The position numbers and the translations under genes were made by a program. Source: Escherichia coli (GTDB lineage Bacteria > Pseudomonadota > Gammaproteobacteria > Enterobacterales > Enterobacteriaceae). Taken from it: a stretch of DNA of 64,000 nt. The number at the start of each line of letters is the position of its first letter. Position 1 is the first letter of the stretch. Below the pieces are notes generated by a model. The model was not told where the DNA came from, did no database searches, and saw nothing but the letters and a program-made list of their open reading frames with translations. Location of the stretch: NCBI RefSeq assembly GCF_003334815.1, contig NZ_QOWO01000016.1. The stretch is one strand, 5' to 3'. Below are positions 1 to 59,608 of the stretch, one piece after another.

Positions 1-77
1 AAAAAATCGGCTCAAACATGAAGAAATGAAATGACTGAGTCAGCCGAGAAGAATTTCCCCGCTTATTCGCACCTTCC
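1..77 (-). mobile_element. IS5 terminal fragment (the window starts inside the element; 16-bp terminal inverted repeat at 62-77)
   Basis: The reverse complement of 1-77 reads GGAAGGTGCGAATAAGCGGGGAAATTCTTCTCGGCTGACTCAGTCATTTCATTTCTTCATG..., which I recognise as the IS5 end. It is followed by CTAA (78-81), which fits the IS5 YTAR target. Confidence 0.8.
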
Positions 78-223
78 CTAAAGTCGGTCGACTGATGGCG
101 GAAGGGAAAATCACTGCTGACATGATGTTAACCCATCGCTATCCGTTCGCCACGCTGGCAGAAACCTACGAGCGCGATGTGATTAACAATCGTGATTTGA
201 TTAAGGGTGTAATTACTTTCTGA
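78..223 (+). pseudogene. lgoD: 3' fragment of L-galactonate-5-dehydrogenase gene lgoD (yjjN), cut by IS5
   Basis: The open frame encodes ...KVGRLMAEGKITADMMLTHRYPFATLAETYERDVINNRDLIKGVITF* with TGA at 221-223. The frame is closed upstream by IS5 sequence. The position next to opgB matches the K-12 gene order. Confidence 0.75.
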
Positions 224-9289: not shown

Positions 9290-9376
9290 TGGTGCGAGGG
9301 GGGGGACTTGAACCCCCACGTCCGTAAGGACACTAACACCTGAAGCTAGCGCGTCTACCAATTCCGCCACCTTCGC
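9290..9376 (-). tRNA. leuV: tRNA-Leu (anticodon CAG), single copy
   Basis: The reverse complement reads GCGAAGGTGGCGGAATTGGTAGACGCGCTAGCTTCAGGTGTTAGTGTCCTTACGGACGTGGGGGTTCAAGTCCCCCCCCTCGCACCA. This is a type-II tRNA with a long variable arm and encoded CCA. Confidence 0.95.
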
Positions 9377-9498: not shown

Positions 9499-9665
<167 letters not shown>

Positions 9666-18786: not shown

Positions 18787-18851
18787 AATAAGTCCTCACT
18801 ATATAAAGATATTCAGTGATGAGATAAATAATCAGTTTATTAAAAACGATA

Positions 18852-19214
18852 TTAACGACCAGCTGCGCGGAGTTTTCCGTCAGGTTCACCGGCAAGAGTC
18901 AGTAATTGTCCCTGGTCTTCCTGCAGAATAGTCAGGCGACCACCGCGATTGACATACATCGGCGTTTCGGTGGTGTCTTCTTCGGAAATTTTCCCGCGGT
19001 TAGTTGGGCGAACATATGAGAGTTTGTGTTTGATTTTCACACGGTTCTCATCAAACGGTTCGATTTCCAGATTGAGTGAGACCTTCCCTTTGGTTTTCGT
19101 GTTCATCACACCGGAAGCGACTTCACTTAGAACTGCGCCGATTTTGGTTTCAAATACGCCGCCGTCCAGCTCCCCGATAAATGCCTGCACATCAGTACTG
19201 CGTTCACTAGCCAT
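18852..19214 (-). CDS. YfdP-like protein
   Basis: 120 aa from MASERSTDVQAF.... The in-frame upstream extension in the track (to 19532) is Cys/Arg-rich and not protein-like. Confidence 0.55.
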   Translation of the reverse strand: MASERSTDVQAFIGELDGGVFETKIGAVLSEVASGVMNTKTKGKVSLNLEIEPFDENRVKIKHKLSYVRPTNRGKISEEDTTETPMYVNRGGRLTILQEDQGQLLTLAGEPDGKLRAAGR

Positions 19215-19651
19215 TTTGCTGCTCCTCATCATATCGACCCTGCAAGGTCGGTTAGTTTCTCCACAAAACAGAGAAGAACACCTGCGGTGGCAGCCGCCCG
19301 GATGGATTGGGTTATGAGCCCGTCGTCCGATGATGCTCTTCTCTGTTTTGTAAAAAGAGCGGTACCAGCCGGAAGCAAGTGTACAAACTGGTACCGCCAA
19401 GACTACACACAGCATAAAGTTGTGGTGCCGGGTGCCTCCCGGTGCCTGGCGAAGGTTGCACACCAGGCTGGTGGGTATCCACAGAAGGTCGACTGTCAGC
19501 CTCAACCTTATCCCGCGTGCGCTGAGCCGCATTCACCACAACGCTAAGGATTCTCTCTGGTTGAAAATACTTAGCTGTTATGTGCCTGTCTTTTCACCAC
19601 TTCAGGCTCGGTGGTATCCTTTTAAGCCCGTATACATAAAAGGAAAATCAA

Positions 19652-19897
19652 ATGACTTTTGATGAAAAAGAACTTGATAATGCAATTAATAAAATCATCG
19701 TAACGTCGCTCTTTTCCTGTCTCAGCGACACTCAGCAAAAACAGTTCTACGAATCGGCTTTCAACATGATCGAGCGTTGTTGTTTCTGCGATGCCGACGA
19801 GTTACCTGAAAAAATCAGGAAACAGTTGGCTGATGCTCTTCGAGTGCGACTTTCTGACCAATTTTCTGAAATGTACTCTCCGAATTTGGACAAATAG
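19652..19897 (+). CDS. Hypothetical 81-aa protein
   Basis: The ATG is preceded by aaaagga. The 3' end overlaps the convergent ORF 19815-20111 by 83 nt. Confidence 0.35.
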   Translation: MTFDEKELDNAINKIIVTSLFSCLSDTQQKQFYESAFNMIERCCFCDADELPEKIRKQLADALRVRLSDQFSEMYSPNLDK

Positions 19898-20111
19898 AAA
19901 AAGGCCATTTCCATTCAGGGTCTGATGGAAAGACTTCAGCCTGTTCTAAAGCACGGCGTAAAGAGAATACAACTCCAGCCATAATCTGATGTTTCCCATT
20001 GGCCCAGCTATCGCCGCTCTGATCTACATGGGCGGCTATGTCGTATGACCAAACGACTTCACAGTTATTGTTTAAAATCTGGACTTTCATTTCATACACC
20101 TGCTTTAACAT
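19815..20111 (-). CDS. Hypothetical 98-aa protein, first ORF downstream of the putative PL
   Basis: ORF only; no clear SD. Confidence 0.35.
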   Translation of the reverse strand: MLKQVYEMKVQILNNNCEVVWSYDIAAHVDQSGDSWANGKHQIMAGVVFSLRRALEQAEVFPSDPEWKWPFSICPNSESTFQKIGQKVALEEHQPTVS

Positions 20112-20214
20112 GAGTGCCTAGTGGCACAACATGACTCAACGAATCATCCTGGACTTCATATGCCCCAGGCGGCTACTTCGTGGGCGTCCTGCCTGTTCGT
20201 TATCTTTGACATAA

Positions 20215-20243
20215 AATCTAACTTAACTTAGTTTTTAAGGCAA
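20215..20243 (-). promoter_or_regulatory. Putative PL with overlapping operator
   Basis: On the minus strand: TTGCCT, 17 nt, TAGATT. The 14-bp operator-like ctaacttaacttag (20218-20231) covers the -10 and spacer. Confidence 0.45.
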
Positions 20244-20276
20244 GAGAAAACACCAAACTTTTCTTAGCTTGGTGCC
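20244..20276 (-). terminator. Rho-independent terminator after cI
   Basis: On the minus strand: CACCAA-gctaagaaaagt-TTGGTG followed by TTTTCTCTT. Confidence 0.6.
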
Positions 20277-20296
20277 TTAGTTAGAGAAGGGAGGTA

Positions 20297-20923
20297 CTAG
20301 AGTTCGTATTGAACTCCTTTGACTACACCAATGATCAGGCAATTACCATTGATCGGGATGTTGGGATACCGGGGATTCAATGGTACTAAAAACTTTTGAT
20401 GACCATCGATGACTAATTTTTTTACTGTAGCTTCGTTCGTTCCATCAAGTCGAGCAATGACTATTTTTCCATGACGGGGTTCTGCATCAGGATCTACAAT
20501 CACTGTTGCACCTTCTGGTATTGTTGGGAGGCCATTAGGGTTAGTCATGGAGTCGCCTTTAACTTCTAATGCAAATGAGTTATCACCAATCTTTAAAGAT
20601 GTATCTACCCACTTGTCCACTTCACTAAACACTTCTGCTGCCCTGCACTCAGTAAACTGCCCAGCCTGAACCCACGAAATTACAGGAACTCTGCGCATGT
20701 TTGTGACGAGTTTGCCTTCAAACTCAGCACCATAAAGAATGTAATCTATTGACGTATTAAAGAACTTCGCTAATTTCGAAAGTGCTTCCCCGCCAGGGAC
20801 ATTGATGTCTTTTTCCCAGTACCCCACAGCAACGTCACTTACCCCACAAAATTTACCCAATTCTTTCTGGGACGTTCTGGTAACCCTTCTCAGAGCTTTT
20901 ATACGCTGACCAACCGTTTCCAT
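20297..20923 (-). CDS. cI: CI-like repressor (XRE HTH plus S24 LexA-type autopeptidase)
   Basis: 208 aa with HTH TSQKELGKFCGVSDVAVGYWE, an Ala-Gly site (VQAGQF), Ser (GDSM) and Lys (TVKKL). Confidence 0.9.
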   Translation of the reverse strand: METVGQRIKALRRVTRTSQKELGKFCGVSDVAVGYWEKDINVPGGEALSKLAKFFNTSIDYILYGAEFEGKLVTNMRRVPVISWVQAGQFTECRAAEVFSEVDKWVDTSLKIGDNSFALEVKGDSMTNPNGLPTIPEGATVIVDPDAEPRHGKIVIARLDGTNEATVKKLVIDGHQKFLVPLNPRYPNIPINGNCLIIGVVKGVQYEL

Positions 20924-20945: not shown

Positions 20946-21008
20946 CTAAGTAATCTTAGTTTTTATTGACCTAAGATAGATTGATAATTAACATCTAATA
21001 AAACTTAG
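20946..21008. promoter_or_regulatory. OR region: three ~14-bp operators spaced 24-25 bp apart, plus putative PR
   Basis: ctaagtaatcttag (20946-59), ctaagatagattga (20971-84, weaker) and ctaataaaacttag (20995-21008). PR is TTGACC (20966-71), 17 nt, TAACAT (20989-94). Confidence 0.55.
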
Positions 21009-21021
21009 TTTTGGAGGGTGT

Positions 21022-21222
21022 ATGACAACTGACGATATCGAAAGCTACTTCGGCAGTATTGAGAAAGTTGCTGATTTTTTCGGCATAACAACTGAAGCCG
21101 TTTATCAGTGGCGAAACCGTCCGGGCCGGTTAATTCCAAAAGGACGTGCAGCAGAAGCTGCATATAGAACTTGCGGACGCTTGCCATTTAAACCTGAGCT
21201 TTATGAAAAATCTAATGGATAA
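21022..21222 (+). CDS. cro: Cro-like HTH regulator
   Basis: 66 aa, divergent from cI, SD ggaggg, HTH KVADFFGITTEAVYQW. Confidence 0.75.
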   Translation: MTTDDIESYFGSIEKVADFFGITTEAVYQWRNRPGRLIPKGRAAEAAYRTCGRLPFKPELYEKSNG

Positions 21223-23594: not shown

Positions 23595-24247
23595 TGAGTA
23601 ATAAATATTGCCGGGCGCTGGTGGAACTGCGGAACAAACCAGCCCATGAACTGAAGGAAGTGGGCGATCAGTGGCGCACGCCGGATAACATTTTCTGGGG
23701 AATTAACACCCTGTTTGGTCCGTTTGTTCTGGATCTGTTCACTGACGGTGATAACGCCAAATGTGCCGCGTATTACACGGCGGAAGACAACGCGCTGGCG
23801 CATGACTGGTCAGAACGTCTTGCGGAGCTTAAAGGTGCTGCCTTTGGTAATCCCCCATACAGCCGCGCCAGTCAGCATGAGGGGCAATACATCACCGGCA
23901 TGCGTTACATCATGAAGCATGCCAGTGCCATGCGTGATAAAGGCGGGCGCTATGTTTTCCTGATCAAAGCTGCCACCAGCGAAGTGTGGTGGCCGGAAGA
24001 CGCAGACCATATTGCTTTTATTCGCGGGCGTATTGGTTTTGAACTGCCTGCCTGGTTTATCCCGAAGGATGAGAAGCAGGTGCCGACAGGCGCTTTCTTC
24101 GCTGGTGCTATTGCTGTTTTCGACAAGACCTGGAAGGGACCGGCAATCAGCTACATCGGGCGCGATGAACTTGAGGCATGTGGTGAGGCGTTTCTGGCGC
24201 AGGTTCGCCAGCAGGCGGAAAAACTGGTCAGGGAGATGGCGGCATGA
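23594..24247 (+). CDS. Phage DNA N6-adenine methyltransferase (Dam-like)
   Basis: 217 aa with the catalytic motif FGNPPYS. The TAATG overlap with the upstream gene marks the start. Confidence 0.8.
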   Translation: MSNKYCRALVELRNKPAHELKEVGDQWRTPDNIFWGINTLFGPFVLDLFTDGDNAKCAAYYTAEDNALAHDWSERLAELKGAAFGNPPYSRASQHEGQYITGMRYIMKHASAMRDKGGRYVFLIKAATSEVWWPEDADHIAFIRGRIGFELPAWFIPKDEKQVPTGAFFAGAIAVFDKTWKGPAISYIGRDELEACGEAFLAQVRQQAEKLVREMAA

Positions 24248-24570
24248 CGACGTTAACTCAATGCCAGCAGCAGGTGCTGGATATGCTGATTTCTTACCAG
24301 CAAGAACGTGGCTTCCCGCCAACCAATCAGGAGGTGGCAACCATGCTGGGATACCGTTCAGTGAATGCAGCAGTGGAGCATCTTCGCGCACTGGAGAAAA
24401 AAGGCGTCATCACGATAAAGCGTGGCGTGGCCCGGGGCATCACGCTTCATACCGCGGTGAAGGACGACGACAGCGAGGCGGTCGGGATTATCCGCTCACT
24501 GCTTGCCGGTGAGGAAAACGCCAGGCTGCGTGCAGCCCACTGGTTACATGAGAGGGGCCTGAAAGTATGA
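24244..24570 (+). CDS. LexA DNA-binding-domain-only protein
   Basis: 108 aa. QQVLDMLISYQQERGFPPTNQEVATMLGYRSVNAAVEHLRALEKKGVITIKRGVARGI matches the LexA N-terminal winged helix. There is no S24 domain. Confidence 0.75.
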   Translation: MTTLTQCQQQVLDMLISYQQERGFPPTNQEVATMLGYRSVNAAVEHLRALEKKGVITIKRGVARGITLHTAVKDDDSEAVGIIRSLLAGEENARLRAAHWLHERGLKV

Positions 24571-24956
24571 AGCTGATTCTGCCGTTTCCGCCCAGCGTGA
24601 ACACGCACTGGCGACACCCCAACAAAGGGGCGTTTGCTGGTAAGAGCCTGATAAGCACGGCGGGACGAAAATTCCAGAGCGCGGCGTGTGCCGCCATCAT
24701 TGAGCAGTTACGTCGTCTGCCGAAACCAACGTCGGCACCTGCTTCAGTGGAGATCGTGTTGTTTCCTCCGGATAACCGGATCCGCGATCTGGACAACTAT
24801 AACAAGGCGCTGTTTGACGCCCTGACCCACGCGGGTGTGTGGGAAGACGACAGTCAGGTGAAAAGAATGCTGGTTGAGTGGGGATCGGTTATCCCGGGAG
24901 GGAAGGTCGAGATCACTATCAGTAAGTACGAGAAAACGGCGGGTGCAGCCGCCTGA
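24567..24956 (+). CDS. rusA: RusA-family Holliday junction resolvase
   Basis: 129 aa with MKLILPFPPSVNTHWR...DLDNYNKALFDALTHAGVWEDDSQV. Confidence 0.9.
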   Translation: MKLILPFPPSVNTHWRHPNKGAFAGKSLISTAGRKFQSAACAAIIEQLRRLPKPTSAPASVEIVLFPPDNRIRDLDNYNKALFDALTHAGVWEDDSQVKRMLVEWGSVIPGGKVEITISKYEKTAGAAA

Positions 24957-24975
24957 TTAAGAGGAGAAACGAAGT

Positions 24976-25785
24976 ATGAATAATCTGATGGTCATTGATG
25001 GTATTGAAGTTCGTCGTGATGCTTATGGGCGTTACAGCCTGAACGATCTGCACAGGGCAGCCGGGGGAGAACAAAAAAACCGCCCGAAATACTGGCTCTC
25101 CAATAAGCAAACCTGTGAATTGATTGAACAACTTTTCACCGAGGGTGGAATTCCGCCTCTGGAACAAAATCAACCAGTTAGCGTCATTAATGGCGGAAAT
25201 AACCAGGGGACGTATGTCTGCAAAGAACTGGTGTATGCCTATGCAATGTGGATCAGCCCGTCATTCCATCTGAAGGTGATCCGTACTTTCGATATGGTAA
25301 CCAGCGCACCGGAAAAATTATCCGGGCAGGCTGCTGACAAGATGCAGGCTGGAGTGATTCTGCTGGACTTTATGCGCAGGGAGTTAAACCTGTCTAACTC
25401 TTCAGTGCTTGGGGCCTGTCAGAAACTCCAGGAGGCTGTTGGCTTACCGAATCTGGCACCGCGCTATGCCATTGATGCTCCTGCTGACGCGCCTGATGGC
25501 TCAAGCCGCCCCACGCTGTCACTGAGTGCACTGCTGAAGCAGTATGGTATCCGCCTGACAGCTAATCAGGCATATCACCAGATGGTGAAGCTGGGGATCG
25601 TCGAGCAGCGCGAACGATACAGCCGTACCGCGATTAACAACATCAAAAAATTCTGGTCACTGACAGCGAAAGGCTGCATGTTCGGCAAGAACATCACCAG
25701 TCCCGCAAATCCGCGCGAGACGCAGCCGCATTTCTTCGAATCCCGATTCCCTGAGCTGTTAAAGCTGCTCGATACCGTTCATTGA
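24976..25785 (+). CDS. KilA-N domain protein
   Basis: 269 aa. The N-terminus GIEVRRDAYGRYSLNDLHRAAG....PKYWL is typical of KilA-N. Confidence 0.65.
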   Translation: MNNLMVIDGIEVRRDAYGRYSLNDLHRAAGGEQKNRPKYWLSNKQTCELIEQLFTEGGIPPLEQNQPVSVINGGNNQGTYVCKELVYAYAMWISPSFHLKVIRTFDMVTSAPEKLSGQAADKMQAGVILLDFMRRELNLSNSSVLGACQKLQEAVGLPNLAPRYAIDAPADAPDGSSRPTLSLSALLKQYGIRLTANQAYHQMVKLGIVEQRERYSRTAINNIKKFWSLTAKGCMFGKNITSPANPRETQPHFFESRFPELLKLLDTVH

Positions 25786-25786
25786 G

Positions 25787-26782
25787 GTGACCGTGAGAGC
25801 ACTACTGACCCCTGAAATTGCCCCGCGTATGGGGATCGTATTGTTCAGACCAGGTTCAGAGCTGATGCCCTTGTTTATGCAGGGGCGTGTCTTGCTGGAG
25901 CCTGAGCCGGAATGTTATTCATCTTTCGCCAGTGGTGCCGTTCCGGCGGCATCACAACCGCTGGCGGATGATCCTGCCGTTCGGGCCGTGTTCCGCAATG
26001 AGGCAGTGATCCGTCGTGCTGGTGGCGTGGAATGTCTTGAAAGCTGGTTACTTCGTGAAAAAGGCTGCCAGTGGCCTCATTCCGACTGGCACAGCGAGAA
26101 CATGACAACAATGCGACACGCTCCGGGCGCAATCCGTCTGTGCTGGCACTGCGATAACCAGCTGCGCGATCAGTTCACGGAACGGCTGGAATCAATGGCA
26201 ACGGATAACTGTGCCCGCTGGGTGTTGTCTGTTGTGCGTCGGGATCTCGGTTTTGATGACAGTCATGTTGTGACAATGCCGGAACTGTGCTGGTGGCTGA
26301 TTCGTAATGATCTGGCGGATGCCTTACCGGAAAGTGCAGCCCGTAAGGCACTGAGATTACCGAAGCCTGTTGTGCCGTCTGTTACCCGGGAAAGTGACCT
26401 TGTGCCTTCGGTTCCTGCCACCAGCATCATCCAGGATAAAGCGAAAAAGGTGCTGGCGCTGAAAGTGGATCCGGAGTCGCCGGAGTCTTTTATGTTACGT
26501 CCCAAACGTCGCCGCTGGGTTAACGAAAAGTACACGCGATGGGTTAAGACGCAGCCGTGCGCATGTTGTGGAAAACCTGCTGATGATCCCCACCACCTGA
26601 TAGGTCACGGTCAGGGTGGAATGGCTACAAAAGCGCATGACCTCTTTGTGTTGCCTTTGTGCAGAAAGCATCACGACGAGCTGCATGCGGATACCGTGGC
26701 ATTTGAAGATAAGTATGGCTCCCAGCTGGAGCTGATATTTCGTTTTATCGATCGTGCGCTGGCAATAGGCGTACTGGCGTAA
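25787..26782 (+). CDS. DUF968 protein (YdfU-like)
   Basis: 331 aa with a GTG start. The C-terminus CACCGKPADDPHHLIGHG...LPLCRKHHDELH is an HNH-like Zn motif of DUF968. Confidence 0.7.
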   Translation: MTVRALLTPEIAPRMGIVLFRPGSELMPLFMQGRVLLEPEPECYSSFASGAVPAASQPLADDPAVRAVFRNEAVIRRAGGVECLESWLLREKGCQWPHSDWHSENMTTMRHAPGAIRLCWHCDNQLRDQFTERLESMATDNCARWVLSVVRRDLGFDDSHVVTMPELCWWLIRNDLADALPESAARKALRLPKPVVPSVTRESDLVPSVPATSIIQDKAKKVLALKVDPESPESFMLRPKRRRWVNEKYTRWVKTQPCACCGKPADDPHHLIGHGQGGMATKAHDLFVLPLCRKHHDELHADTVAFEDKYGSQLELIFRFIDRALAIGVLA

Positions 26783-26795
26783 GTGGAGAACGAGC

Positions 26796-27548
26796 ATGAA
26801 CCTTGAAGCTTTACCAAAATATTACTCCCCAAAATCTCCAAAATTGAGTGATGACGCACCGGCGACAGGCTCGGGTGGTTTAACAATTACAGATGTGATG
26901 GCTGCGCAGGGGATGGTGCAGTCGAAAGCACCGCTTGGGTTTGCCTTATTCCTGGCAAAAGTTGGTGTTCAGGATCCTCAGTTTGCGATTGAAGGTCTGC
27001 TCAATTACGCGATGGCACTGGATAACCAGACATTGAACAAATTGAGTGAAGAAACCCGGCTACAGATCATTCCTTACCTTGTGAATTTTGCCTTTGCTGA
27101 TTATTCCAGGTCTGCGGCAAGTAAGGCTCGCTGTGAGCGTTGTTCTGGTACTGGATTTCATAATGTATTGCGCGAAGTGGTGAAACACTCCAGAAGCGGG
27201 GAGTCTGTTATCAAGGAAGAGTGGGTGAAGGAACTATGTCAGCATTGTCATGGTAAGGGAGAAGTCAGCACAGCGTGCAGAGGGTGTAAGGGTAAAGGTA
27301 TTGTCCTGGATGAAAAAAGAACCCGGCTTCATGGCACGCCTGTTTATAAGATTTGTGGGCGTTGCAATGGAAACCGGTTTAGCCGTTTACCAACCACACT
27401 GGCGCGGAATCATGTCCAGAAGCTGGTACCGGACCTGACTGATTATCAGTGGTACAAAGGATATGCAAATGTCATTGATAAACTGGTTACAAAGTGCTGG
27501 CAGGAGGAATCTTACGCTGAAGCACAATTGAGAAAGGTGACGAGATAA
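26796..27548 (+). CDS. Late antiterminator Q (QuuQ-like, four CxxCxGxG motifs)
   Basis: 250 aa, near-identical by memory to Qin QuuQ (MNLE.LPKYYSPKSPKLSDDAPATG...). It lies immediately upstream of the putative PR'/tR' and the lysis genes. Confidence 0.8.
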   Translation: MNLEALPKYYSPKSPKLSDDAPATGSGGLTITDVMAAQGMVQSKAPLGFALFLAKVGVQDPQFAIEGLLNYAMALDNQTLNKLSEETRLQIIPYLVNFAFADYSRSAASKARCERCSGTGFHNVLREVVKHSRSGESVIKEEWVKELCQHCHGKGEVSTACRGCKGKGIVLDEKRTRLHGTPVYKICGRCNGNRFSRLPTTLARNHVQKLVPDLTDYQWYKGYANVIDKLVTKCWQEESYAEAQLRKVTR

Positions 27549-27579
27549 GTAATTTTCGCCGAAGATGGCGACATGATGC

Positions 27580-27608
27580 TTGCATTTTTCAAAAAATATG
27601 GTTAGGAT
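27580..27608 (+). promoter_or_regulatory. Putative late promoter PR'
   Basis: TTGCAT, 17 nt, TAGGAT, followed by the hairpin gttagg-atttc-cctaac. Confidence 0.35.
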
Positions 27609-27654
27609 TTCCCTAACGATGGGCTTTGTGTGTCTACCGTTGATAATCTTCAAG

Positions 27655-27678
27655 AAACCGCCACCGAGCGGTTTTTTA
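27655..27678 (+). terminator. tR'-like rho-independent terminator
   Basis: aaaccgc-caccga-gcggttt followed by tttta. Confidence 0.7.
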
Positions 27679-27836
27679 TTGATGTCAATTGTGTTTTTAA
27701 GGCTCTCCTTCCTTAAAGTGTGTTGTACAAAAAACTGGCAGCCAGCTACGCTCATTTTGAAAAAGTGACACCCTTCAATGTTTCTTTTGAATGGAATTGC
27801 TACCCATAAATCTCTATCAAAAACAGGAGAGCATAT

Positions 27837-28079
27837 ATGGTGGAGCGTTGTTCTGTTTGTGAGCAGTCATTAAGTTATTCACGAGAAGTTGAACAAGATG
27901 GCGTTGAATATAAATCTTGCCCAAAATGTTCTGCTGATGCCGGAGTGCACGTTTTTTATAAAACAATAGACTTTGGTTATAGGGATATGGGAGACGGCAG
28001 GCATATCGTTCAGTCATGGTGTCCGGCTTGCCGTTCTGGTGAAAAACCTTCTATACCACCAGCATTTAAATGTTGTTAA
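27837..28079 (+). CDS. Cys-rich zinc-ribbon protein (moron between Q/tR' and the holin)
   Basis: 80 aa with SD aggaga and CxxC motifs (CSVC, CPKC, CPAC). It has its own terminator downstream. Confidence 0.6.
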   Translation: MVERCSVCEQSLSYSREVEQDGVEYKSCPKCSADAGVHVFYKTIDFGYRDMGDGRHIVQSWCPACRSGEKPSIPPAFKCC

Positions 28080-28098
28080 CTCAATGAATTATAAAAAG

Positions 28099-28124
28099 AG
28101 GCTGCCTGTGGGCGGCCTTTTTTG
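28099..28124 (+). terminator. Rho-independent terminator
   Basis: aggctgcc-tgtg-ggcggcct followed by ttttt. Confidence 0.75.
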
Positions 28125-28210
28125 TGCACTACGCATCTTTTGCGACTCAGCGCTATAACCAGCTTCTTTCCCTTCACTCGTTGCACTTCCGATAACCGGA
28201 GGTGGGAATT

Positions 28211-28552
28211 ATGAAAATGCATAACGATCCTCATTCCTGGTCTGACTTACTTGAATTGTTACAGAGCTGGTGGCGTGGAGACACACCGCTGGGCGCAGTA
28301 ATTATGTCGATCGTTATGGCTGGCTTGCGCATTGCCTATTTTGGCGGTGGTGGTGGCTGGAAGCGAAAAACGCTCGAGATTTTGCTCTGCGGCGCTCTGA
28401 CGCTGACTTTTGCATCCGCTCTTGAGTATGTCGGATGGCCTAAATCGCTTTCTGTTGCCATTGGTGGTGGCGTTGGGTTGATCGGTGTCGATGCTATTCG
28501 TGGGGCTGCAATGAGAGTAATCGGTAACAAGTTTGGTGGCTCTAAGGAGTAA
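28211..28552 (+). CDS. Holin, lambda S-like class I with an MKM dual-start motif
   Basis: 113 aa beginning MKMHND.. with hydrophobic helices and a charged C-terminus. SD ggagg. It lies immediately upstream of the endolysin. Confidence 0.8.
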   Translation: MKMHNDPHSWSDLLELLQSWWRGDTPLGAVIMSIVMAGLRIAYFGGGGGWKRKTLEILLCGALTLTFASALEYVGWPKSLSVAIGGGVGLIGVDAIRGAAMRVIGNKFGGSKE

Positions 28553-28555
28553 TTT

Positions 28556-29032
28556 ATGCAGGTACTAAATTCCCAGCGTAAAGCTTTCCTGGATATGGTG
28601 GCATGGTCAGAAGGAACGGATAACGGGCGACAACCGACACGTAACCACGGTTATGACGTTATTGTCGGTGGCGAACTCTTCACTGATTACTCCGATCACC
28701 CTCGCAAACTTGTCACGCTAAACCCGAAACTCAAATCAACAGCTGCAGGCCGTTATCAACTTCTTTCACGTTGGTGGGATGCTTACCGTAAGCAGCTTGG
28801 CCTGAAAGACTTCTCTCCCAAAAGTCAGGACGCTGTGGCATTGCAGCAGATTAAAGAGCGTGGCGCTTTGCCGATGATTGACCGCGGTGATATTCGTCAG
28901 GCAATCGACCGTTGCAGCAATATCTGGGCTTCACTGCCGGGCGCTGGTTATGGTCAGTTCGAGCATAAGGCTGACAACCTTATTGCAAAATTCAAAGAAG
29001 CTGGCGGAACGATCAGAGAGATTGAGGTATGA
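28556..29032 (+). CDS. Endolysin, lambda R-type lytic transglycosylase
   Basis: 158 aa, near-identical to lambda R as I recall it ([35 protein letters not shown]...). Confidence 0.95.
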
Positions 29033-29466
29033 GCAGAGTAACCGCGATTATCTCTGCTCTGGTTATCTGCATCATCGTCTGCCTGTCATGGGCGGTTAAT
29101 CATTACCGTGATAACGCCATCACTTACAAAAAGCAGCGTGATAAGGCCGCATCCATTATTACTGACATGCAGAAGCGTCAACGTGATGTAGCAGAACTCG
29201 ACGCCAGATACACAAAGGAGCTTGCTGATGCTAACGCGACTATCGAAAGTCTCCGTGCTGATGTTTCTGCTGGTCGTAAGCGCCTGCAAGTCGCCGCCAC
29301 CTGTGCAAAGTCAACGACCGGAGCCAGCAGCATGGGCGATGGAGAAAGCCCAAGACTTACAGCAGATGCTGAACTCAATTATTACCGTCTCAGAAGTGGA
29401 ATCGACAGGATAACCGCGCAGGTTAACTACCTGCAGGAATACATCAGGACGCAATGCCTGAAATGA
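29029..29466 (+). CDS. i-spanin Rz
   Basis: 145 aa with an N-terminal TM, then a coiled coil. It overlaps the endolysin stop. Confidence 0.85.
29222..29413 (+). CDS. o-spanin Rz1 (lipoprotein) embedded in Rz in the +1 frame
   Basis: Lipobox LVVSAC followed by a Pro-rich segment ([16 protein letters not shown]). Confidence 0.8.
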
Positions 29467-29501
29467 TCGGGCGATGAAAACCAAAAAAACAGGAGCAATA
29501 C

Positions 29502-29777
29502 ATGACTAAGCTTTATCACCGCATCTCAGCTTTTCTCTCTGGGTGCTGGGCGTTTATCACGTCTATTTCGTTCGCCATCTTTAGTTTCGGTAGCACAGCA
29601 TGCTCGCTTAGTCGGGGTCTGTGGCGTGCTATTTCAGCACTAGCGCCGAAATTTTTACCTGAAAAGGTTGTTTGGCGAATTGTAGAGCGAATGTGTAGTG
29701 AGAGCGTTCGCGAGAAGATTAACGTATTTGGACGTCATCCTCGAAATACAGGCGCATTGTGCAGTTCGTTACTGTAG
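29502..29777 (+). CDS. Hypothetical 91-aa hydrophobic protein (moron)
   Basis: SD aggag with a hydrophobic N-terminal half. Confidence 0.45.
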   Translation: MTKLYHRISAFLSGCWAFITSISFAIFSFGSTACSLSRGLWRAISALAPKFLPEKVVWRIVERMCSESVREKINVFGRHPRNTGALCSSLL

Positions 29778-29895
29778 TCATTACAAAGCCCATCTTTGGG
29801 TTTGGTTTGTAATTTCGCTGCTGCAATAATCACCAGAAATATGGCATTGTTATTGGTGGTCATATGTCATACCCATCAATTACAAAGGAGCAGAC

Positions 29896-30147
29896 ATGTC
29901 ATCTACAAAATTAGTTAAAACTATCCTTTTCCATGGAGATAATAAATATGAAGTTTATGCAACCTCCGAGTACGCTGACGTAGATAGAATCATTCATTAC
30001 AAGTTACGCTCATGTAAAAACACAGATGGTTCAGATGGCAAGTCTGAATCTATATGGGTTGTATATAATCCTGCTGTTCAACTACCGGATGATCTGAACT
30101 ACAAAAAAGTTAGCAACATAGCTCCTTATCTTGAAAAGTTACAATAA
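29896..30147 (+). CDS. Hypothetical 83-aa protein (moron)
   Basis: SD aaaggag, AT-rich, followed by a strong terminator. Confidence 0.5.
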   Translation: MSSTKLVKTILFHGDNKYEVYATSEYADVDRIIHYKLRSCKNTDGSDGKSESIWVVYNPAVQLPDDLNYKKVSNIAPYLEKLQ

Positions 30148-30167
30148 ACTTCCTTTTCCACATGCTA

Positions 30168-30193
30168 AAAGCCTCGTATTCGCGGGGCTTTTT
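30168..30193 (+). terminator. Rho-independent terminator
   Basis: aaagcctcg-tattcg-cggggcttt followed by ttatt. A second hairpin aagccactc-cctaca-gagtggctt follows. Confidence 0.75.
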
Positions 30194-30359
30194 ATTGTCA
30201 TTACAAAAGCCACTCCCTACAGAGTGGCTTTGATAATGGTTTATACCCTACACGGGATAACTTAACTGATATCCCTTTTAACGGATAAACGGAGCCAACA
30301 ATGGCAGAGAATGTCGGCATTATGGCAGTTAAATTTGGATAAATCGGAGATTAGTACAT

Positions 30360-30710
30360 ATGCCGCCACGAATCCCGAAAGCCTGCCGTGCTCGAGGTTG
30401 CCGTAATACCACCACAGACCCGTCAGGCTACTGCGAAAGCCACAAAAGCGAAGGCTGGAAGCAATACAAGCCAGGCCAGTCCCGACACCAGCGCGGTTAT
30501 GGTTCGAAATGGGATGTTATCCGTGAACGTGTACTCAAGCGTGACAAAGGCCTGTGTCAGCTATGTCTGCGTGCTGGTGTGGTGCGTGAGGCGAAAACTG
30601 TTGACCACATCATCCCTAAAGCGCATGGCGGCACAGATGCCGACAGCAATCTGCAGAGCCTGTGCTGGCCGTGCCATAAGGCGAAGACGGCCCGTGAACG
30701 GCTAAAGTGA
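30360..30710 (+). CDS. HNH endonuclease (packaging-associated)
   Basis: 116 aa with ..VDHIIPKAHGGTDADSNLQSLCWPCHKAKT... It lies directly upstream of the terminase genes. Confidence 0.9.
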   Translation: MPPRIPKACRARGCRNTTTDPSGYCESHKSEGWKQYKPGQSRHQRGYGSKWDVIRERVLKRDKGLCQLCLRAGVVREAKTVDHIIPKAHGGTDADSNLQSLCWPCHKAKTARERLK

Positions 30711-30835
30711 TCATAATTCTCAACTGTCTGAGGGGAGGGGCGGGTCAAATCTCTGTGACCTGACGTCTTCCGGACTGCCCGCCCCATCGTTTTTTTATAC
30801 CCGCGAAAAATGAAATTTAACCAGGAGTGCCGCAT

Positions 30836-31330
30836 ATGGCTGGAACGGCGGGGCGTTCCGGGCGTCGCCCCAAGCCAACGGCGCGCAAGGCGCTGGCCGG
30901 AAACCCCGGCAAGCGAGCCCTGAACAAAGATGAACCTGTTTTTACGCCCATCAAAGGTGTTGAGCCACCGGAGTGGTTCGCTGAAGAAGATCTCCCTCTC
31001 GCCACGATCATGTGGCAACTGACAACCAAAGAACTCTGCGGTCAGGGCCTGCTGTGCGTGACTGACCTCGCGGTGCTTGAGCGGTGGTGCGTGGCCTATG
31101 AGTTCTGGCGACGTGCTGTGAAAAATATTGCCATACAGGGCAACACCATCACCGGCGCAATGGGCGGCAGGGTCAAAAATCCGGAGCTGACAGCCAAAAA
31201 AGAACAGGAGTCCGAGATGAGCAGCACGGGGGCAATGCTCGGACTCGACCCCAGCAGCCGCCAGCGTCTGATTGGCCTGGCGGGGCAGAAGAAAGCTACT
31301 AACCCGTTTCTGAAAATCATCGAATCATGA
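30836..31330 (+). CDS. Terminase small subunit (P27 family)
   Basis: 164 aa beginning [27 protein letters not shown], characteristic of P27-type TerS. SD aggag is 8 nt upstream. Confidence 0.85.
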
Positions 31331-33060
31331 GCCGGAAATCTTACCCCAACGTAAATGCTGCCAATCAGTATGCCCGGGATGTCGTTCGCGGAAAGATTGT
31401 GGCCTGCCAGTTTGTGATTCAGGCCTGCCAGCGCCATCTTGATGACCTGATGGAGGAAAAAAGTAAGTCGTTTCGTTACCGCTTCGACAAGGACCTGGCT
31501 GAACGGGCCGCGAAATTTATTCAGCTGTTGCCGCACACCAAGGGTGAGTGGGCATTTAAGAGGATGCCCATCACGCTGGAGCCGTGGCAGCTCTTTGTGA
31601 TCTGCTGCGCGTTTGGCTGGGTCAATAAAGGCTCCCGGCTGCGCCGCTTCCGTGAGGTGTATACCGAAATCCCCCGTAAGAACGGCAAATCGGCAATCTC
31701 TGCCGGTGTCGCCCTGTATTGTTTTGCCTGTGATAACGAGTTCGGCGCGGAAGTGTATTCCGGTGCCACGACGGAGAAACAGGCATGGGAAGTCTTTCGT
31801 CCGGCAAGACTGATGTGTAAACGCACGCCCATGCTGACGGAAGCGTTCGGGATTGAGGTTAACGCCTCAAACATGAACCGTCCGGAGGATGGTGCGCGTT
31901 TTGAACCGCTGATCGGTAACCCCGGTGATGGTTCATCACCCCACTGTGCGGTGGTGGATGAATATCACGAGCACGCCACAGATGCGCTTTACACCACGAT
32001 GCTTACCGGGATGGGGGCGCGACGTCAGCCACTGATGTGGGCTATCACTACCGCCGGGTACAACATTGAGGGGCCGTGCTACGACAAACGGCGGGAAGTC
32101 ATCGAGATGCTCAACGGCTCGGTGCCTAACGATGAACTGTTCGGGATCATCTATACCGTTGATGAAGGTGACGACTGGACCGACCCGCAGGTGCTGGAAA
32201 AAGCCAATCCAAATATTGGCGTGTCGGTTTATCGCGAATTTTTGTTAAGTCAGCAGCAGCGTGCGAAAAATAACGCCCGTCTGGCAAACGTCTTTAAAAC
32301 AAAACACCTCAATATCTGGGTGTCGGCGCGTTCGGCGTATTTCAACCTGGTGAGCTGGCAGAGCTGCGAGGATAAATCACTGACCCTTGAGCAGTTCGAG
32401 GGGCAGCCGTGCATTCTGGCCTTTGACCTGGCGCGTAAGCTGGATATGAACAGCATGGCGCGACTTTATACCCGCGAGATTGACGGTAAAACGCATTACT
32501 ACAGTGTGGCCCCGCGTTTCTGGGTACCGTATGACACGGTGTACAGCGTCGAGAAAAATGAAGATCGACGGACAGCCGAACGCTTTCAGAAATGGGTGGA
32601 AATGGGCGTTCTGACCGTTACCGATGGTGCGGAGGTGGATTATCGCTACATCCTCGAGGAGGCCAAAGCGGCGAACAAAATCAGCCCGGTCAGTGAGTCA
32701 CCCATCGACCCCTTCGGGGCGACCGGGTTGTCACATGACCTTGCTGATGAAGACCTGAACCCCATCACTATCATTCAGAACTACACCAACATGTCCGACC
32801 CGATGAAAGAGCTGGAAGCGGCAATTGAATCGGGGCGCTTTCATCATGATGGCAATCCCATCATGACCTGGTGTATCGGCAACGTGGTCGGCAAAACCAT
32901 TCCGGGTAACGATGATGTGGTGAAGCCCGTCAAAGAGCAGGCGGAAAACAAAATCGATGGTGCAGTTGCGCTGATTATGGCGGTTGGCAGAGCCATGCTG
33001 TACGAGAAAGAAGACACGCTGTCTGACCACATTGAGTCCTATGGGATCCGCTCGCTTTAA
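31327..33060 (+). CDS. Terminase large subunit
   Basis: 577 aa with Walker A-like IPRKNGKS and the position after TerS. Confidence 0.9.
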
Positions 33061-33071
33061 CTGAGGTAATT

Positions 33072-33254
33072 ATGATCATGCTGATTCTCGCGCCTCTGGT
33101 GGGCGTGCTGGGGGCGCTTTTGCTGGCGTATGGTGCCTGGCTGATTTATCCCCCGGCGGGGTTTGTTGTTGCCGGGGCGTTGTGTCTGTTCTGGTCGTGG
33201 CTGGTGGCGCGATATCTCGACCGTACACAGCCGTCTTTCGGCGGAGGTAAATAG
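33072..33254 (+). CDS. Small 2-TM membrane protein
   Basis: 60 aa, hydrophobic, between terL and portal. Confidence 0.45.
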
Positions 33255-34495
33255 TGTTCTTTTCGGGATTATTTCAACGAAAAAGTGACGCACCGATGAC
33301 CACGCCAGCAGAGCTGGCGGAGGCTATCGGGCTATCATATGACACCTATACCGGAAAGCAGATCAGCAGCCAGCGGGCCATGCGACTGACGGCGGTTTTT
33401 TCCTGCGTCAGGGTGCTGGCAGAGTCGGTCGGGATGTTGCCCTGCAATCTGTATCACCTGAACGGCAGCCTGAAACAGAGAGCCACCGGCGAACGTCTGC
33501 ATAAGCTGATCTCCACGCATCCCAATGGCTATATGACGCCGCAGGAGTTCTGGGAGCTGGTGGTCACCTGTCTGTGCCTGAGGGGAAACTTTTACGCCTA
33601 CAAAGTGAAAGCATTTGGCGAAGTGGCTGAACTGCTGCCCGTCGATCCCGGTTGTGTGGTACCGAAGCTTAACAGTAGCTGGGAGCCGGTCTATCAGGTC
33701 ACATTCCCGGACGGCTCCACGGATGTGCTGAGCCAGGAGGATATCTGGCATGTGCGCACGCTGACGCTGGACGGACTGGTGGGGCTGAATCCCGTCGCCT
33801 ATGCCCGCGAGGCAATATCGCTGGCGGCAGCGACTGAAGAGCACGGGGCCAGACTGTTCAGCAATGGTGCGGTGACGTCGGGTGTGTTGCGTACAGAGCA
33901 GACGCTGTCAGATCAGGCTTATGAGCGCCTGAAGAAAGATTTTGAGGAGCGTCACACCGGGCTTGGCAATGCTCACCGCCCGATGATCCTTGAGATGGGG
34001 CTGGACTGGAAGTCGATGGCGCTGAACGCCGAGGACAGCCAGTTCCTGGAAACCCGCAAGTTTCAGCTTGAAGAAATCTGTCGTCTGTTCCGGGTACCGT
34101 TGCACATGGTGCAGAACACCGATCGCGCCACCTTCAACAATATCGAAGAACTGGGGCTCGGATTTATCAACTATTCACTGGTGCCGTATCTGACCCGCAT
34201 CGAACAGCGGATCAACACCGGACTGGTACGAAAAAGTAAGCAGGGCGTTTATTACGCCAAATTTAACGCCGGGGCGTTACTGCGCGGGGATATGAAGTCC
34301 CGTTTTGAAGCCTACGCCACCGGGATTAACTGGGGAATTTACTCTCCCAATGACTGCCGCGACCTGGAAGATATGAATCCGCGTCCCGGTGGGGATGTCT
34401 ATCTCACACCGATGAACATGACCACGAAACCCTCCGATGGCAGTAAAGCCGGTAAGCAGAAGGATAACGCCAATGCAGACGAAACAACGTCTTGA
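33254..34495 (+). CDS. Portal protein (HK97 family)
   Basis: 413 aa with a GTG start after ggagg. Order is terL-portal-protease-capsid. Confidence 0.88.
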   Translation: MFFSGLFQRKSDAPMTTPAELAEAIGLSYDTYTGKQISSQRAMRLTAVFSCVRVLAESVGMLPCNLYHLNGSLKQRATGERLHKLISTHPNGYMTPQEFWELVVTCLCLRGNFYAYKVKAFGEVAELLPVDPGCVVPKLNSSWEPVYQVTFPDGSTDVLSQEDIWHVRTLTLDGLVGLNPVAYAREAISLAAATEEHGARLFSNGAVTSGVLRTEQTLSDQAYERLKKDFEERHTGLGNAHRPMILEMGLDWKSMALNAEDSQFLETRKFQLEEICRLFRVPLHMVQNTDRATFNNIEELGLGFINYSLVPYLTRIEQRINTGLVRKSKQGVYYAKFNAGALLRGDMKSRFEAYATGINWGIYSPNDCRDLEDMNPRPGGDVYLTPMNMTTKPSDGSKAGKQKDNANADETTS

Positions 34496-48371: not shown

Positions 48372-48815
48372 ATGAATAAAGTTAAAAGTGTTTACAGCCC
48401 GTCCGAAAATGCAATCTACAACGCAGCGCTATATGAAAGTTATATCAAGGAGGGGACATGGCCGCAGGATGGTATTGAAATCAGCGATGAGGATGCTGTC
48501 AGATTTAATGGGGGAAATAAGCCAACAGGAAAAATGCTGGGAATGGTTTCAGGGACCCTTGCATGGGTTGATGAGCCGCCGCTTTCACCAGAACAGAAAA
48601 TATCAGATGCAGAAAACATGAAAGCCACATTTCGTGCAAAAGCTGACAGTGAAATATCCTGGCGTCAGGATGCTGTTGATGCTGGTATCGCAACTGATGA
48701 AGAAACTTCAACTCTCACCCAATGGAAGAAATACCGTGTGCTGCTGATGCGTGTTGATACTTCAACAGCACCCGATATTGAATGGCCTACGCCTCCGGCA
48801 GTCCAGGCCAGATGA
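48372..48815 (+). CDS. Tail fibre assembly chaperone (Tfa), currently expressed orientation
   Basis: 147 aa with the C-terminus ...YRVLLMRVDTSTAPDIEWPTPP. Confidence 0.8.
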   Translation: MNKVKSVYSPSENAIYNAALYESYIKEGTWPQDGIEISDEDAVRFNGGNKPTGKMLGMVSGTLAWVDEPPLSPEQKISDAENMKATFRAKADSEISWRQDAVDAGIATDEETSTLTQWKKYRVLLMRVDTSTAPDIEWPTPPAVQAR

Positions 48816-59195: not shown

Positions 59196-59608
59196 TTTAC
59201 CCTTCGTAGGCAGCATCCGGCAGTCGGCGCATAATGCCTGATGCGACGCTTGTCGCGTCTTATCATGCCTACAGGTTTGTGCCGAACCGTAGGCCGGATA
59301 AGGCGTTCACGCCGCATCCGGCAGTTGGCGCACAATGCCTGATGCGACGCTTGACGCGTCTTATCATGCCTACAAGTCTGTGCCGAACCGTAGGCCGGAT
59401 AAGGCGTTCAGGCCGCATCCGGCAGTTGGCGCACAATGCCTGATGCGACGCTGACGCGTCTTATCATGCCTACAAGTCTGTGCCGAACCGTAGGCCGGAT
59501 AAGGCGTTCACGCCGCATCCGGCAGTCGGCGCATAATGCCTGATGCGACGCTTGTCGCGTCTTATCATGCCTACAAGTCTGTGCCGAACCGTAGGCCGTA
59601 TCCGGCAT
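59196..59608. repeat. REP/BIME array (about 4-5 units)
   Basis: Repeated gcctgatgcgacgct..gcgtcttatcatgcctaca..gtgccgaaccgtaggccggataaggcgttcacgccgcatccggca units. Confidence 0.9.

Follow-up and report, generated by a model that had tools for sequence, protein, structure and literature searches.

A structured RNA block related to STnc100 in the early-left operon of a lambdoid Escherichia coli prophage: a candidate small RNA

Introduction

PasD1 and PasD2 of enteropathogenic Escherichia coli E2348/69 are prophage-encoded intergenic small RNAs (sRNAs) that end in a terminator, and they have been documented by northern blots, Hfq-dependent stability, and partners captured by ligating and sequencing RNAs that interact (RIL-seq) (PMC8550237). 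PasD was described as a structural homologue of STnc100 (bioRxiv 10.64898/2026.05.13.724894), and STnc100 overlaps the Hfq-bound RNA EcOnc27 (PMC12711010). Here, we analyzed a 436-nucleotide (nt) block at positions 19215 to 19650 of a 64,000-nt stretch of E. coli DNA (contig NZ_QOWO01000016.1, assembly GCF_003334815.1), hereafter referred to as the window. The block lies in the early-left operon of a lambdoid prophage of the SfV/CPS-53 type, and its current annotation is nothing, "hypothetical protein," or a frameshifted pseudogene. An initial annotation had proposed a cis-acting RNA or an sRNA, protein-binding sites, or a decayed gene. The reading that we prefer, with slightly better than even confidence, is that transcripts from the early promoter PL yield a discrete sRNA of the STnc100/PasD superfamily, whose terminator gates yfdPQR and which is followed by a tRNA-like hairpin.

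Results and Discussion

The block folds as a minus-strand RNA

The minus-strand fold of the block had a predicted energy of -178.8 kcal/mol, compared with -138.0 ± 6.5 kcal/mol for shuffled sequences (z = -6.26; none of 100 shuffles was as good). The plus-strand value was -158.9 kcal/mol (z = -4.19), and the difference of approximately 20 kcal/mol in favor of the minus strand gave an early indication that the RNA functions in its minus-strand form.

The symmetric elements reported initially were all found in the sequence. The perfect 15-bp inverted repeat (19263-19277 and 19337-19351) extends to 25 nt at 84% complementarity; we calculate that chance would give an inverted repeat of this length, perfect and within 100 nt, about 0.006 times per 64 kb. 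The perfect 10-bp stem (19359-19368 and 19388-19397) was also verified, although inverted repeats of that length are expected several times per 64 kb, so that it is not significant alone. Three GGTGCC copies occur within 19424-19446, a CACCAG-G-CTGGTG palindrome spans 19461-19473, and a CCACC..GGTGG hairpin followed by a T-run occupies 19596-19615, the last having a terminator-like shape on the plus strand only. An additional perfect 9-bp long-range pair joins 19419-19427 with 19534-19542. These elements had been regarded as one block, but they belong to separable modules with different evolutionary distributions. The block had further been called much more GC-rich than its neighbors; it is richer (GC fraction of 0.525 to 0.55 across 19100-19600, compared with 0.37 to 0.47 in the flanks), but "much" was an overstatement.

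The core matches STnc100 and recurs in early operons

An Rfam scan had been recommended with the initial annotation. At gathering thresholds the scan of the window returned nothing in the block, whereas a permissive scan returned STnc100 (RF02076) on the minus strand at 19350-19572, with 44.9 bits and an E value of 4.4e-8 over the full model (positions 1-206). Within this match, positions 19418-19544 (minus strand) form a 125-nt closed five-helix RNA domain, hereafter the core, which aligns to STnc100 model positions 31-147. Cores from SfV, ST64B, 118970_sal3, phiES15, SJ46, and P1 matched the same model positions at 33 to 42 bits, and five early-type genome loci (L134, L167, L205, L216, and L144) had no STnc100 hit at the gathering threshold. 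A covariance model that we built from the core (R1) scored 123.7 bits in the window, at a single copy. Neither a second core copy nor a canonical STnc100 was found in the window when R1 was run on all 64 kb and an STnc100-type scan was run on positions 20000-64000.

The core shares several features with STnc100, which is also represented by EcOnc27 and by sRNA103 downstream of stx2B. In both, GGUGAAU and CACCGGGAGGCACCCGGCACC delimit a closed core of several helices, and a hairpin comes immediately after GGUGAAU; both also have a variable middle, a terminal CCGGG/CCCGG hairpin, and a 3' terminator, and both are prophage-borne in Enterobacterales and co-oriented with tRNA arrays. The three GGTGCC copies are the reverse complement of CACCGGGAGGCACCCGGCACC, the most conserved stretch of STnc100, and both they and the palindrome CACCAGGCTGGTG lie within the core. 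STnc100 and the window core differ in the first hairpin (GCGGCUCAGCGCACGC in place of CCCCCnnGCGGnGGGG, at the same location), in the 9-bp closing helix, and in genomic setting, since the core described here is carried in the early-left (PL) operon or the P1 ban operon and not in the late region near Q, stx, and lysis genes. PasD lies in the late region as well, beside the Q antiterminator gene and lpxR; we liken the window RNA to it by description only, and the PasD seeds and targets are not applicable to it. PasB was considered as a relative and rejected, as it lies among phage structural genes.

BLAST comparison with phage genomes identified the element in SfV, SfII, and other E. coli and Shigella phages at 96 to 98% identity, in ST64B and 118970_sal3 at approximately 87%, in Cronobacter phage phiES15 at 76%, and in P1-like phages at approximately 71%. 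The early operons of SfV, SfII, ST64B, phiES15, and P1-like phages carry the core. An exact-pattern scan of viral contigs added 120 loci with 37 distinct core sequences, and a second scan used the 3' block as its anchor and yielded 136 copies spread over many Enterobacterales genera. The canonical form (GGUGAAUCCCCC...) makes up most of these 136 copies, and some have yet other versions of the first hairpin. The window core belongs to a divergent "early-operon" subgroup that falls outside the Rfam threshold. Recognizing this subgroup would extend the STnc100/PasD family past its present Rfam boundary into early operons.

Compensatory changes support the core structure and argue against a protein-coding gene

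RNAalifold was applied to 24 distinct cores (alignment A2) and identified five helices, which in the window lie on the minus strand as follows: P1, the closing helix (19534-19542 with 19419-19427); P1a (19515-19530); P2, a long-range helix (19511-19514 with 19469-19472); P3 (19465-19468 with 19444-19447); and P4 (19438-19442 with 19428-19432). Paired cells made up 99.2% of this alignment, compared with at most 51% when the partners were slid. Five pairs, located in P1, P2, and P3, had changed on both sides (33 cells), a number reached by none of 500 shuffles. Two variable P1 pairs, which alternate between U-A and C-G and between G-C and A-U, were paired in 106 and 104 of 108 distinct superfamily sequences. 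P1a and P4 never vary and thus provide no evidence either way, and part of their invariance is due to the search pattern. Conservation and compensatory pair changes indicate that the core is a real, conserved structured RNA, as had been suspected for the block.

The same comparison bears on whether the block is a protein-coding gene or the decayed remnant of one, encoded on the plus strand (phrog_3651) or, as a frameshifted protein, on the minus strand. A plus-strand open reading frame (ORF) at 19287-19547 (86 amino acids) matches the PHROG family phrog_3651 with an E value of 7e-49, the NCBI Prokaryotic Genome Annotation Pipeline (PGAP) places a "frameshifted hypothetical protein" on the minus strand at the equivalent place in a near-identical E. 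coli prophage, and several phage records show a "hypothetical protein" over the region. Every frame, however, is closed within the core in at least one lineage, and three lineages (phiES15, L087, and L118) carry stops in each of the six. The commonest variant (L009, 52 loci) interrupts the frame that the window leaves open, core lengths range from 121 to 134 nt with differences that are not multiples of three, and the substitutions are compensatory for base pairs. Pfam gave no hits for the block ORFs, and GC-rich structured RNA readily yields long spurious ORFs. The suggestion of a decayed gene was thus rejected, and a coding origin of any kind is the least credible of the explanations that we weighed.

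The block is therefore noncoding, with no reading frame conserved across lineages. Its ORFs had been dismissed initially as nonsense, which agrees with their lack of conservation in other lineages but overlooked the phrog_3651 match and the PGAP pseudogene. These ORF families are best explained as gene-caller artifacts on GC-rich RNA genes. The 162-amino-acid phrog_3651 profile appears to be built on an ORF antisense to yfdP and to the RNA block, and the family is probably spurious; recognition of the block as RNA would allow such families to be removed.

A conserved unpaired stretch is followed by interchangeable terminators

On the minus strand, the core is followed by a conserved single-stranded stretch, UUUAUGCUGUGUGUAGUCUU (19399-19418), which is unpaired in the predicted fold and is a candidate base-pairing seed. 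The sequence AUUGCUGUGUGWAGUCUU is kept in SfV-, ST64B-, and phiES15-type loci despite three unrelated hairpin-plus-U-run terminators. In the window, the terminator occupies 19352-19398, where GGCGGUACCAG...CUGGUACCGC, corresponding to the 10-bp stem noted above, is followed by UCUUUUU; it has the shape of an intrinsic terminator, and its T-run sits on the minus strand. A hairpin and T-run were present 40 to 100 nt after the core in all 96 lambdoid early-type copies. A structured body, a conserved unpaired stretch, and a terminator together make up the usual build of an Hfq-type sRNA. Among the options raised initially, an sRNA fits best, given the full-length sub-threshold STnc100 match, the covariation, the conserved single-stranded stretch, and the terminator.

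The terminator also recalls DicF (RF00039) of the Qin prophage, which is likewise carried in an immunity-adjacent early operon. The 5' arm, UUGGCGGUACCAGUUU, is identical at 15 of 16 positions to a stretch of the Rfam DicF consensus, and P1 has an annotated "dicF-like region" in the ban operon that carries the core. The loop and 3' arm differ, however, and the DicF 5' seed is absent; the DicF model scored 18.9 bits (E = 0.4) against a threshold of 48 bits.

The remaining modules of the block are arranged around this unit on the minus strand. Farthest upstream, a hairpin (ACCACCGAGCCUGAAGUGGU) and linker (GAAAAGACAGGCACAUAACAG) at 19575-19615 look like the 3' remnant of a further upstream module. 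Comparison with P1 suggests that hairpin A (GCUAAGUAUUUUC...GAGAAUCCUUAGC, 19543-19575), recognized as an inverted repeat and in the fold, is a collapsed version of the D-type module found ahead of the core in P1-like phages. The upstream hairpin and linker element (CCACCUCGCCUGAUGUGGCUAAAAGCAGGCACAYAACA) also precedes the core in Cronobacter phage phiES15 and in loci L057 and L124, and the linker CAYAACAG-NNAAG recurs ahead of each module. Downstream of the terminator, the D-module (19263-19351) consists of a 25-bp outer stem, which holds the 15-bp inverted repeat, enclosing two arms. It is followed by a small predicted hairpin (CGACCUUGCAGGGUCG, 19235-19250, within 19222-19252) and by the yfdP Shine-Dalgarno sequence GAGGAG (19222-19227).

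These module borders coincide with mosaic joints, a pattern that would suit symmetric elements acting as DNA, whether by binding proteins or by serving as recombination joints between phage modules. The terminator and everything to its left (19150-19400) are 98 to 100% identical in mEp460, cdtI, and Stx2c phages, which lack the core, so that terminator and D-module travel with yfdP without it; conversely, the core travels with different terminators, ST64B having the core in common with the window and a different terminator. On the other hand, the compensatory changes tolerate G-U pairs and the folding is strand-asymmetric, both of which point to RNA. The palindromes noted initially map within RNA helices or span their junctions and do not form conserved dyad sites, and the operators of this phage differ in sequence (CTAAG-N4-CTTAG). 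A DNA-level role is thus very improbable.

Proposed release of a small RNA from PL transcripts

The left border of the block is the yfdP homologue (minus strand; its ATG start codon begins at 19214). To the right of the block are a small plus-strand ORF (19652-19897; phrog_3311), a minus-strand homologue of SfV orf33 (19815-20111; phrog_3195), a LexA/cI-type repressor gene (20297-20923, minus strand), and cro (21022-21222, plus strand); both PHROG families are of unknown function. Operator-like CTAAG-N4-CTTAG palindromes are present at 20218-20231, just left of cI, and at 20946-20959 and 20995-21008, between cI and cro. By sequence and placement on either side of the repressor gene, they are consistent with being OL and OR of this immunity type. 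A putative PL promoter with its OL operator was placed outside the block at about 20210-20245 (minus strand), with promoter hexamers assigned by eye, and would fire leftward. Transcription from it would run through the block on the minus strand, which would then lie 650 to 1000 nt into the early-left transcript. The block lies downstream of this operator-bearing putative PL, and the block or core occupies the same operon position in SfV and ST64B, in agreement with the initial proposal that the block is transcribed with the early-left operon.

We propose that the block is a noncoding leader or intercistronic region of the PL operon, built as a minus-strand chain of structured-RNA modules. When PL is derepressed, RNA polymerase would transcribe orf33 and then the block. 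Most transcripts would end at the terminator and release an sRNA of approximately 180 to 230 nt as the principal product, comprising the core, the single-stranded stretch, and the terminator with its U-tail (19352-19398), with a 5' end generated by processing near the CAYAACAG linker. Such an sRNA may accumulate as a discrete species and pair with targets in an Hfq-dependent manner. The terminator would thereby act as an attenuator that restrains expression of yfdP-yfdQ-yfdR. Read-through transcripts would carry the D-module, a long double-stranded tRNA-like hairpin that lies immediately ahead of the yfdP ribosome-binding site and probably serves in processing or stability. If correct, this proposal gives a concrete handle on the role of these abundant prophage RNAs and bears on how lambdoid phages without N pass the terminators between PL and the delayed-early genes. 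Our literature searches for sRNAs of ST64B or SfV, or for tRNA-like RNAs of early operons, found nothing relevant.

Several observations weigh against release of a discrete sRNA of this family. The STnc100 score of the window falls just under the gathering threshold of 47 bits, compared with 48 to 138 bits for canonical members. Because the large sequence sets were gathered with exact-match patterns, part of the invariance of their 5' and 3' blocks is built in. In the window, one of the four P2 pairs is broken by a C-to-A change private to this copy. A consensus promoter scan made no minus-strand call near the block, PL included, so that a discrete 5' end rests on processing, which is itself a proposal. 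The complement of the single-stranded stretch occurs in the window only at its own locus, with no in-window target. E. coli K-12 lacks the block, homology with its CPS-53 prophage being limited to positions from 19233 leftwards, and K-12 transcriptomes are therefore uninformative. In P1-like phages, 15 of 18 copies have no terminator and the core lies 30 nt upstream of the tciA start codon, an arrangement more in keeping with an element that acts in cis or is processed than with an sRNA defined by its terminator.

A cis-acting element of a particular kind, a processive antiterminator like the put RNA of phage HK022, had been raised initially. The put RNA is approximately 70 nt long, has two stem-loops, and is found after both early promoters of HK022 (PMC9378689). 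In such a role, the core, once folded on the emerging PL RNA, would engage RNA polymerase and carry it past the terminators downstream, in place of an N protein. Like putL and putR, it is a structured RNA in the early-operon leader of a lambdoid phage without an obvious N. It always occurs in repressor-controlled early operons upstream of most early genes (PL in SfV, ST64B, and phiES15, and the C1-controlled ban operon in P1), terminators lie after it, and its long invariant stretches could form a surface to which polymerase or a protein binds. It had been stated initially that no N-like gene is evident; no N-like family was detected, and orf33, the first PL gene, has no known function, matches only phrog_3195, and has no Pfam hit.

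The architecture and distribution of the core nevertheless differ from those of put. BLAST of the element against phage genomes did not find HK022, and R1 run over HK022 positions 24000-34000 with filters off gave a best score of 11.7 bits inside IS903, which is noise. The core is a 125-nt five-helix closed domain, not a pair of stem-loops, and it is present once in the window, with no copy after PR. Its canonical relatives, located in late regions and in tRNA arrays, accumulate as sRNAs bound by Hfq, and a terminator placed right after an antiterminator that always works would never yield the conserved unit of seed and terminator. Given the lack of an R1 match, the different architecture, and the single window copy, membership in the put family was rejected, and we consider a put-like function decidedly unlikely. 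With regard to a lambda-type nut site, a boxA-like sequence (UGCUCUUU) 5' of the core in P1-type copies was also dropped, since it is the 3' strand of a hairpin and is explained by that pairing; the window has AAUCCUUAGC there.

Two further observations concern the PL transcript. A stretch of 70 nt just downstream of the putative PL (20129-20199, minus strand) is approximately 86% conserved in ST64B and 118970_sal3, with different flanks; it contains a GC-rich hairpin and could be a leader element of the PL transcript. The convergent ORFs at 19652-19897 (plus strand) and 19815-20111 (minus strand) share 83 nt at their 3' ends, and SfV annotates only the minus-strand one, while PGAP annotates only the plus-strand one.

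The D-module and possible tRNA ancestry

The 89-nt D-module matched no Rfam family. It was found in 71 phage records, including phages of Klebsiella, Salmonella, and Pantoea; in phages of E. coli, Salmonella, and Klebsiella, it precedes yfdP-type genes. In P1-like and Pantoea phages, related D forms precede the core, and in Klebsiella phage GZ7 one directly follows tRNA-Arg and ends in ...CAGGCC-ACCA. The tip of arm 1, CGGGCUCAUAACCC (19309-19322), matches the anticodon arm of the E. coli initiator tRNA metY at all 14 nt, and the first D-like unit of P1 holds a perfect T-arm, GGGTTCGAATCCC. Nine of the 22 D-module pairs, including five of the seven in the lower stem of arm 1, had changed on both sides, and 76.5% of cells were paired, compared with at most 55% when slid; these counts were made on a structure that we named ourselves and are weaker evidence than those for the core, as RNAalifold on the heterogeneous alignment gave only the apical 3 bp.

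Three tandem units, each composed of a D-like hairpin and a closed GUUGUG...CACAAC domain, make up the ban-operon leader of P1 (locus L004, NC_005856; positions 920-1630). They lie directly after tRNA-Asn and tRNA-Thr and overlap plp and upl, which are annotated on the opposite strand.

These resemblances raise the tentative alternative that the modules are tRNA-derived structured RNAs that serve not in base-pairing regulation but in processing, being cut out of polycistronic phage transcripts by RNase P, Z, or E as tRNAs are and thus acting as punctuation, or that mimic tRNA parts towards host or defense factors. This explanation overlaps with an sRNA function and does not exclude it. Phage tRNA arrays are known to hold stable non-tRNA RNAs; the species 1 and 2 RNAs of phage T4 are embedded in one. 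In two loci, L087 and L126, a tRNA array includes an early-type core, which lies 3 nt ahead of tRNA-Ser, and in L087 it fills an array slot (Asn-Tyr-Thr-core-Ser). Canonical STnc100 copies are interspersed among tRNA genes of the same orientation, in three loci a copy lies 9 to 12 nt upstream of tRNA-Met, and tandem STnc100 arrays consist of two or three copies approximately 220 to 260 nt apart. All tRNA genes within 2 kb of family members are on the same strand, and this interleaving suggests cotranscription and tRNA-style excision, perhaps a tRNA origin. The core layout is itself cloverleaf-like, with a closing helix and four arms, the last of which abuts the 3' strand, and the arm 1 tip, the GZ7 element, and the P1 T-arm described above point the same way for the D-module.

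The window copy differs from such arrays in having no adjacent tRNA gene, and its modules are not recognized as tRNAs. ARAGORN found no tRNA in positions 18800-20300, which include the block, the Rfam tRNA model RF00005 had no hit at E ≤ 10, and the window modules have no CCA end. No tRNA was present in the fetched locus for 84 of 120 viral loci and 95 of 112 genome loci, and lambdoid copies bring their own terminators. We regard tRNA-style processing or mimicry as less likely than a terminator-defined sRNA.

A more specific form of mimicry, in which the core and D-module are tRNA-derived RNAs with a direct non-mRNA target and act as a decoy, a ligand, or a polymerase- or protein-binding RNA, seems unlikely. 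If it were true, the D-module could be a decoy for anticodon-loop nucleases such as VapC-type toxins, or a ligand of the 30S P site or initiation factor 3; alternatively, the invariant core could be a novel RNA that binds polymerase or a protein and thereby controls elongation in the early operons of N-less lambdoid and P1-like phages.

Tandem STnc100 arrays, often mixed with tRNA genes, were seen in L171, L189, L213, L234, and L166, from Superficieibacter, Enterobacter, and others. Their members share a constant scaffold but differ in the variable middle. Recognition of the block as RNA would link the STnc100/PasD family, and a second, undescribed tRNA-like module, to prophage tRNA arrays.

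Distribution of the block and other RNA matches

The full block was present in 1361 of 5426 complete E. coli genomes, about a quarter. The block or core also occurs in the Shigella serotype-converting phages SfV and SfII, in Salmonella phage ST64B, in Cronobacter phages, and in P1-like phages. In ST64B (locus L003), positions 21-97 (minus strand) match isrK (RF01394) with 64 bits, near replication-side genes.

Other RNA matches lie elsewhere in the window. A sub-threshold match to IS009 (RF02111) was obtained at 48577-48766 (plus strand), with 48 bits against a threshold of 117 bits and an E value of 4e-8. Three tandem naRNA4 repeats, of the repetitive extragenic palindromic (REP)/bacterial interspersed mosaic element (BIME) type, occupy 59292-59571 (plus strand), and one further naRNA4 copy (9516-9598, plus strand) is accompanied by one tRNA gene (9293-9376, minus strand). 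The naRNA4 repeats and the tRNA gene probably represent host DNA or a prophage boundary.

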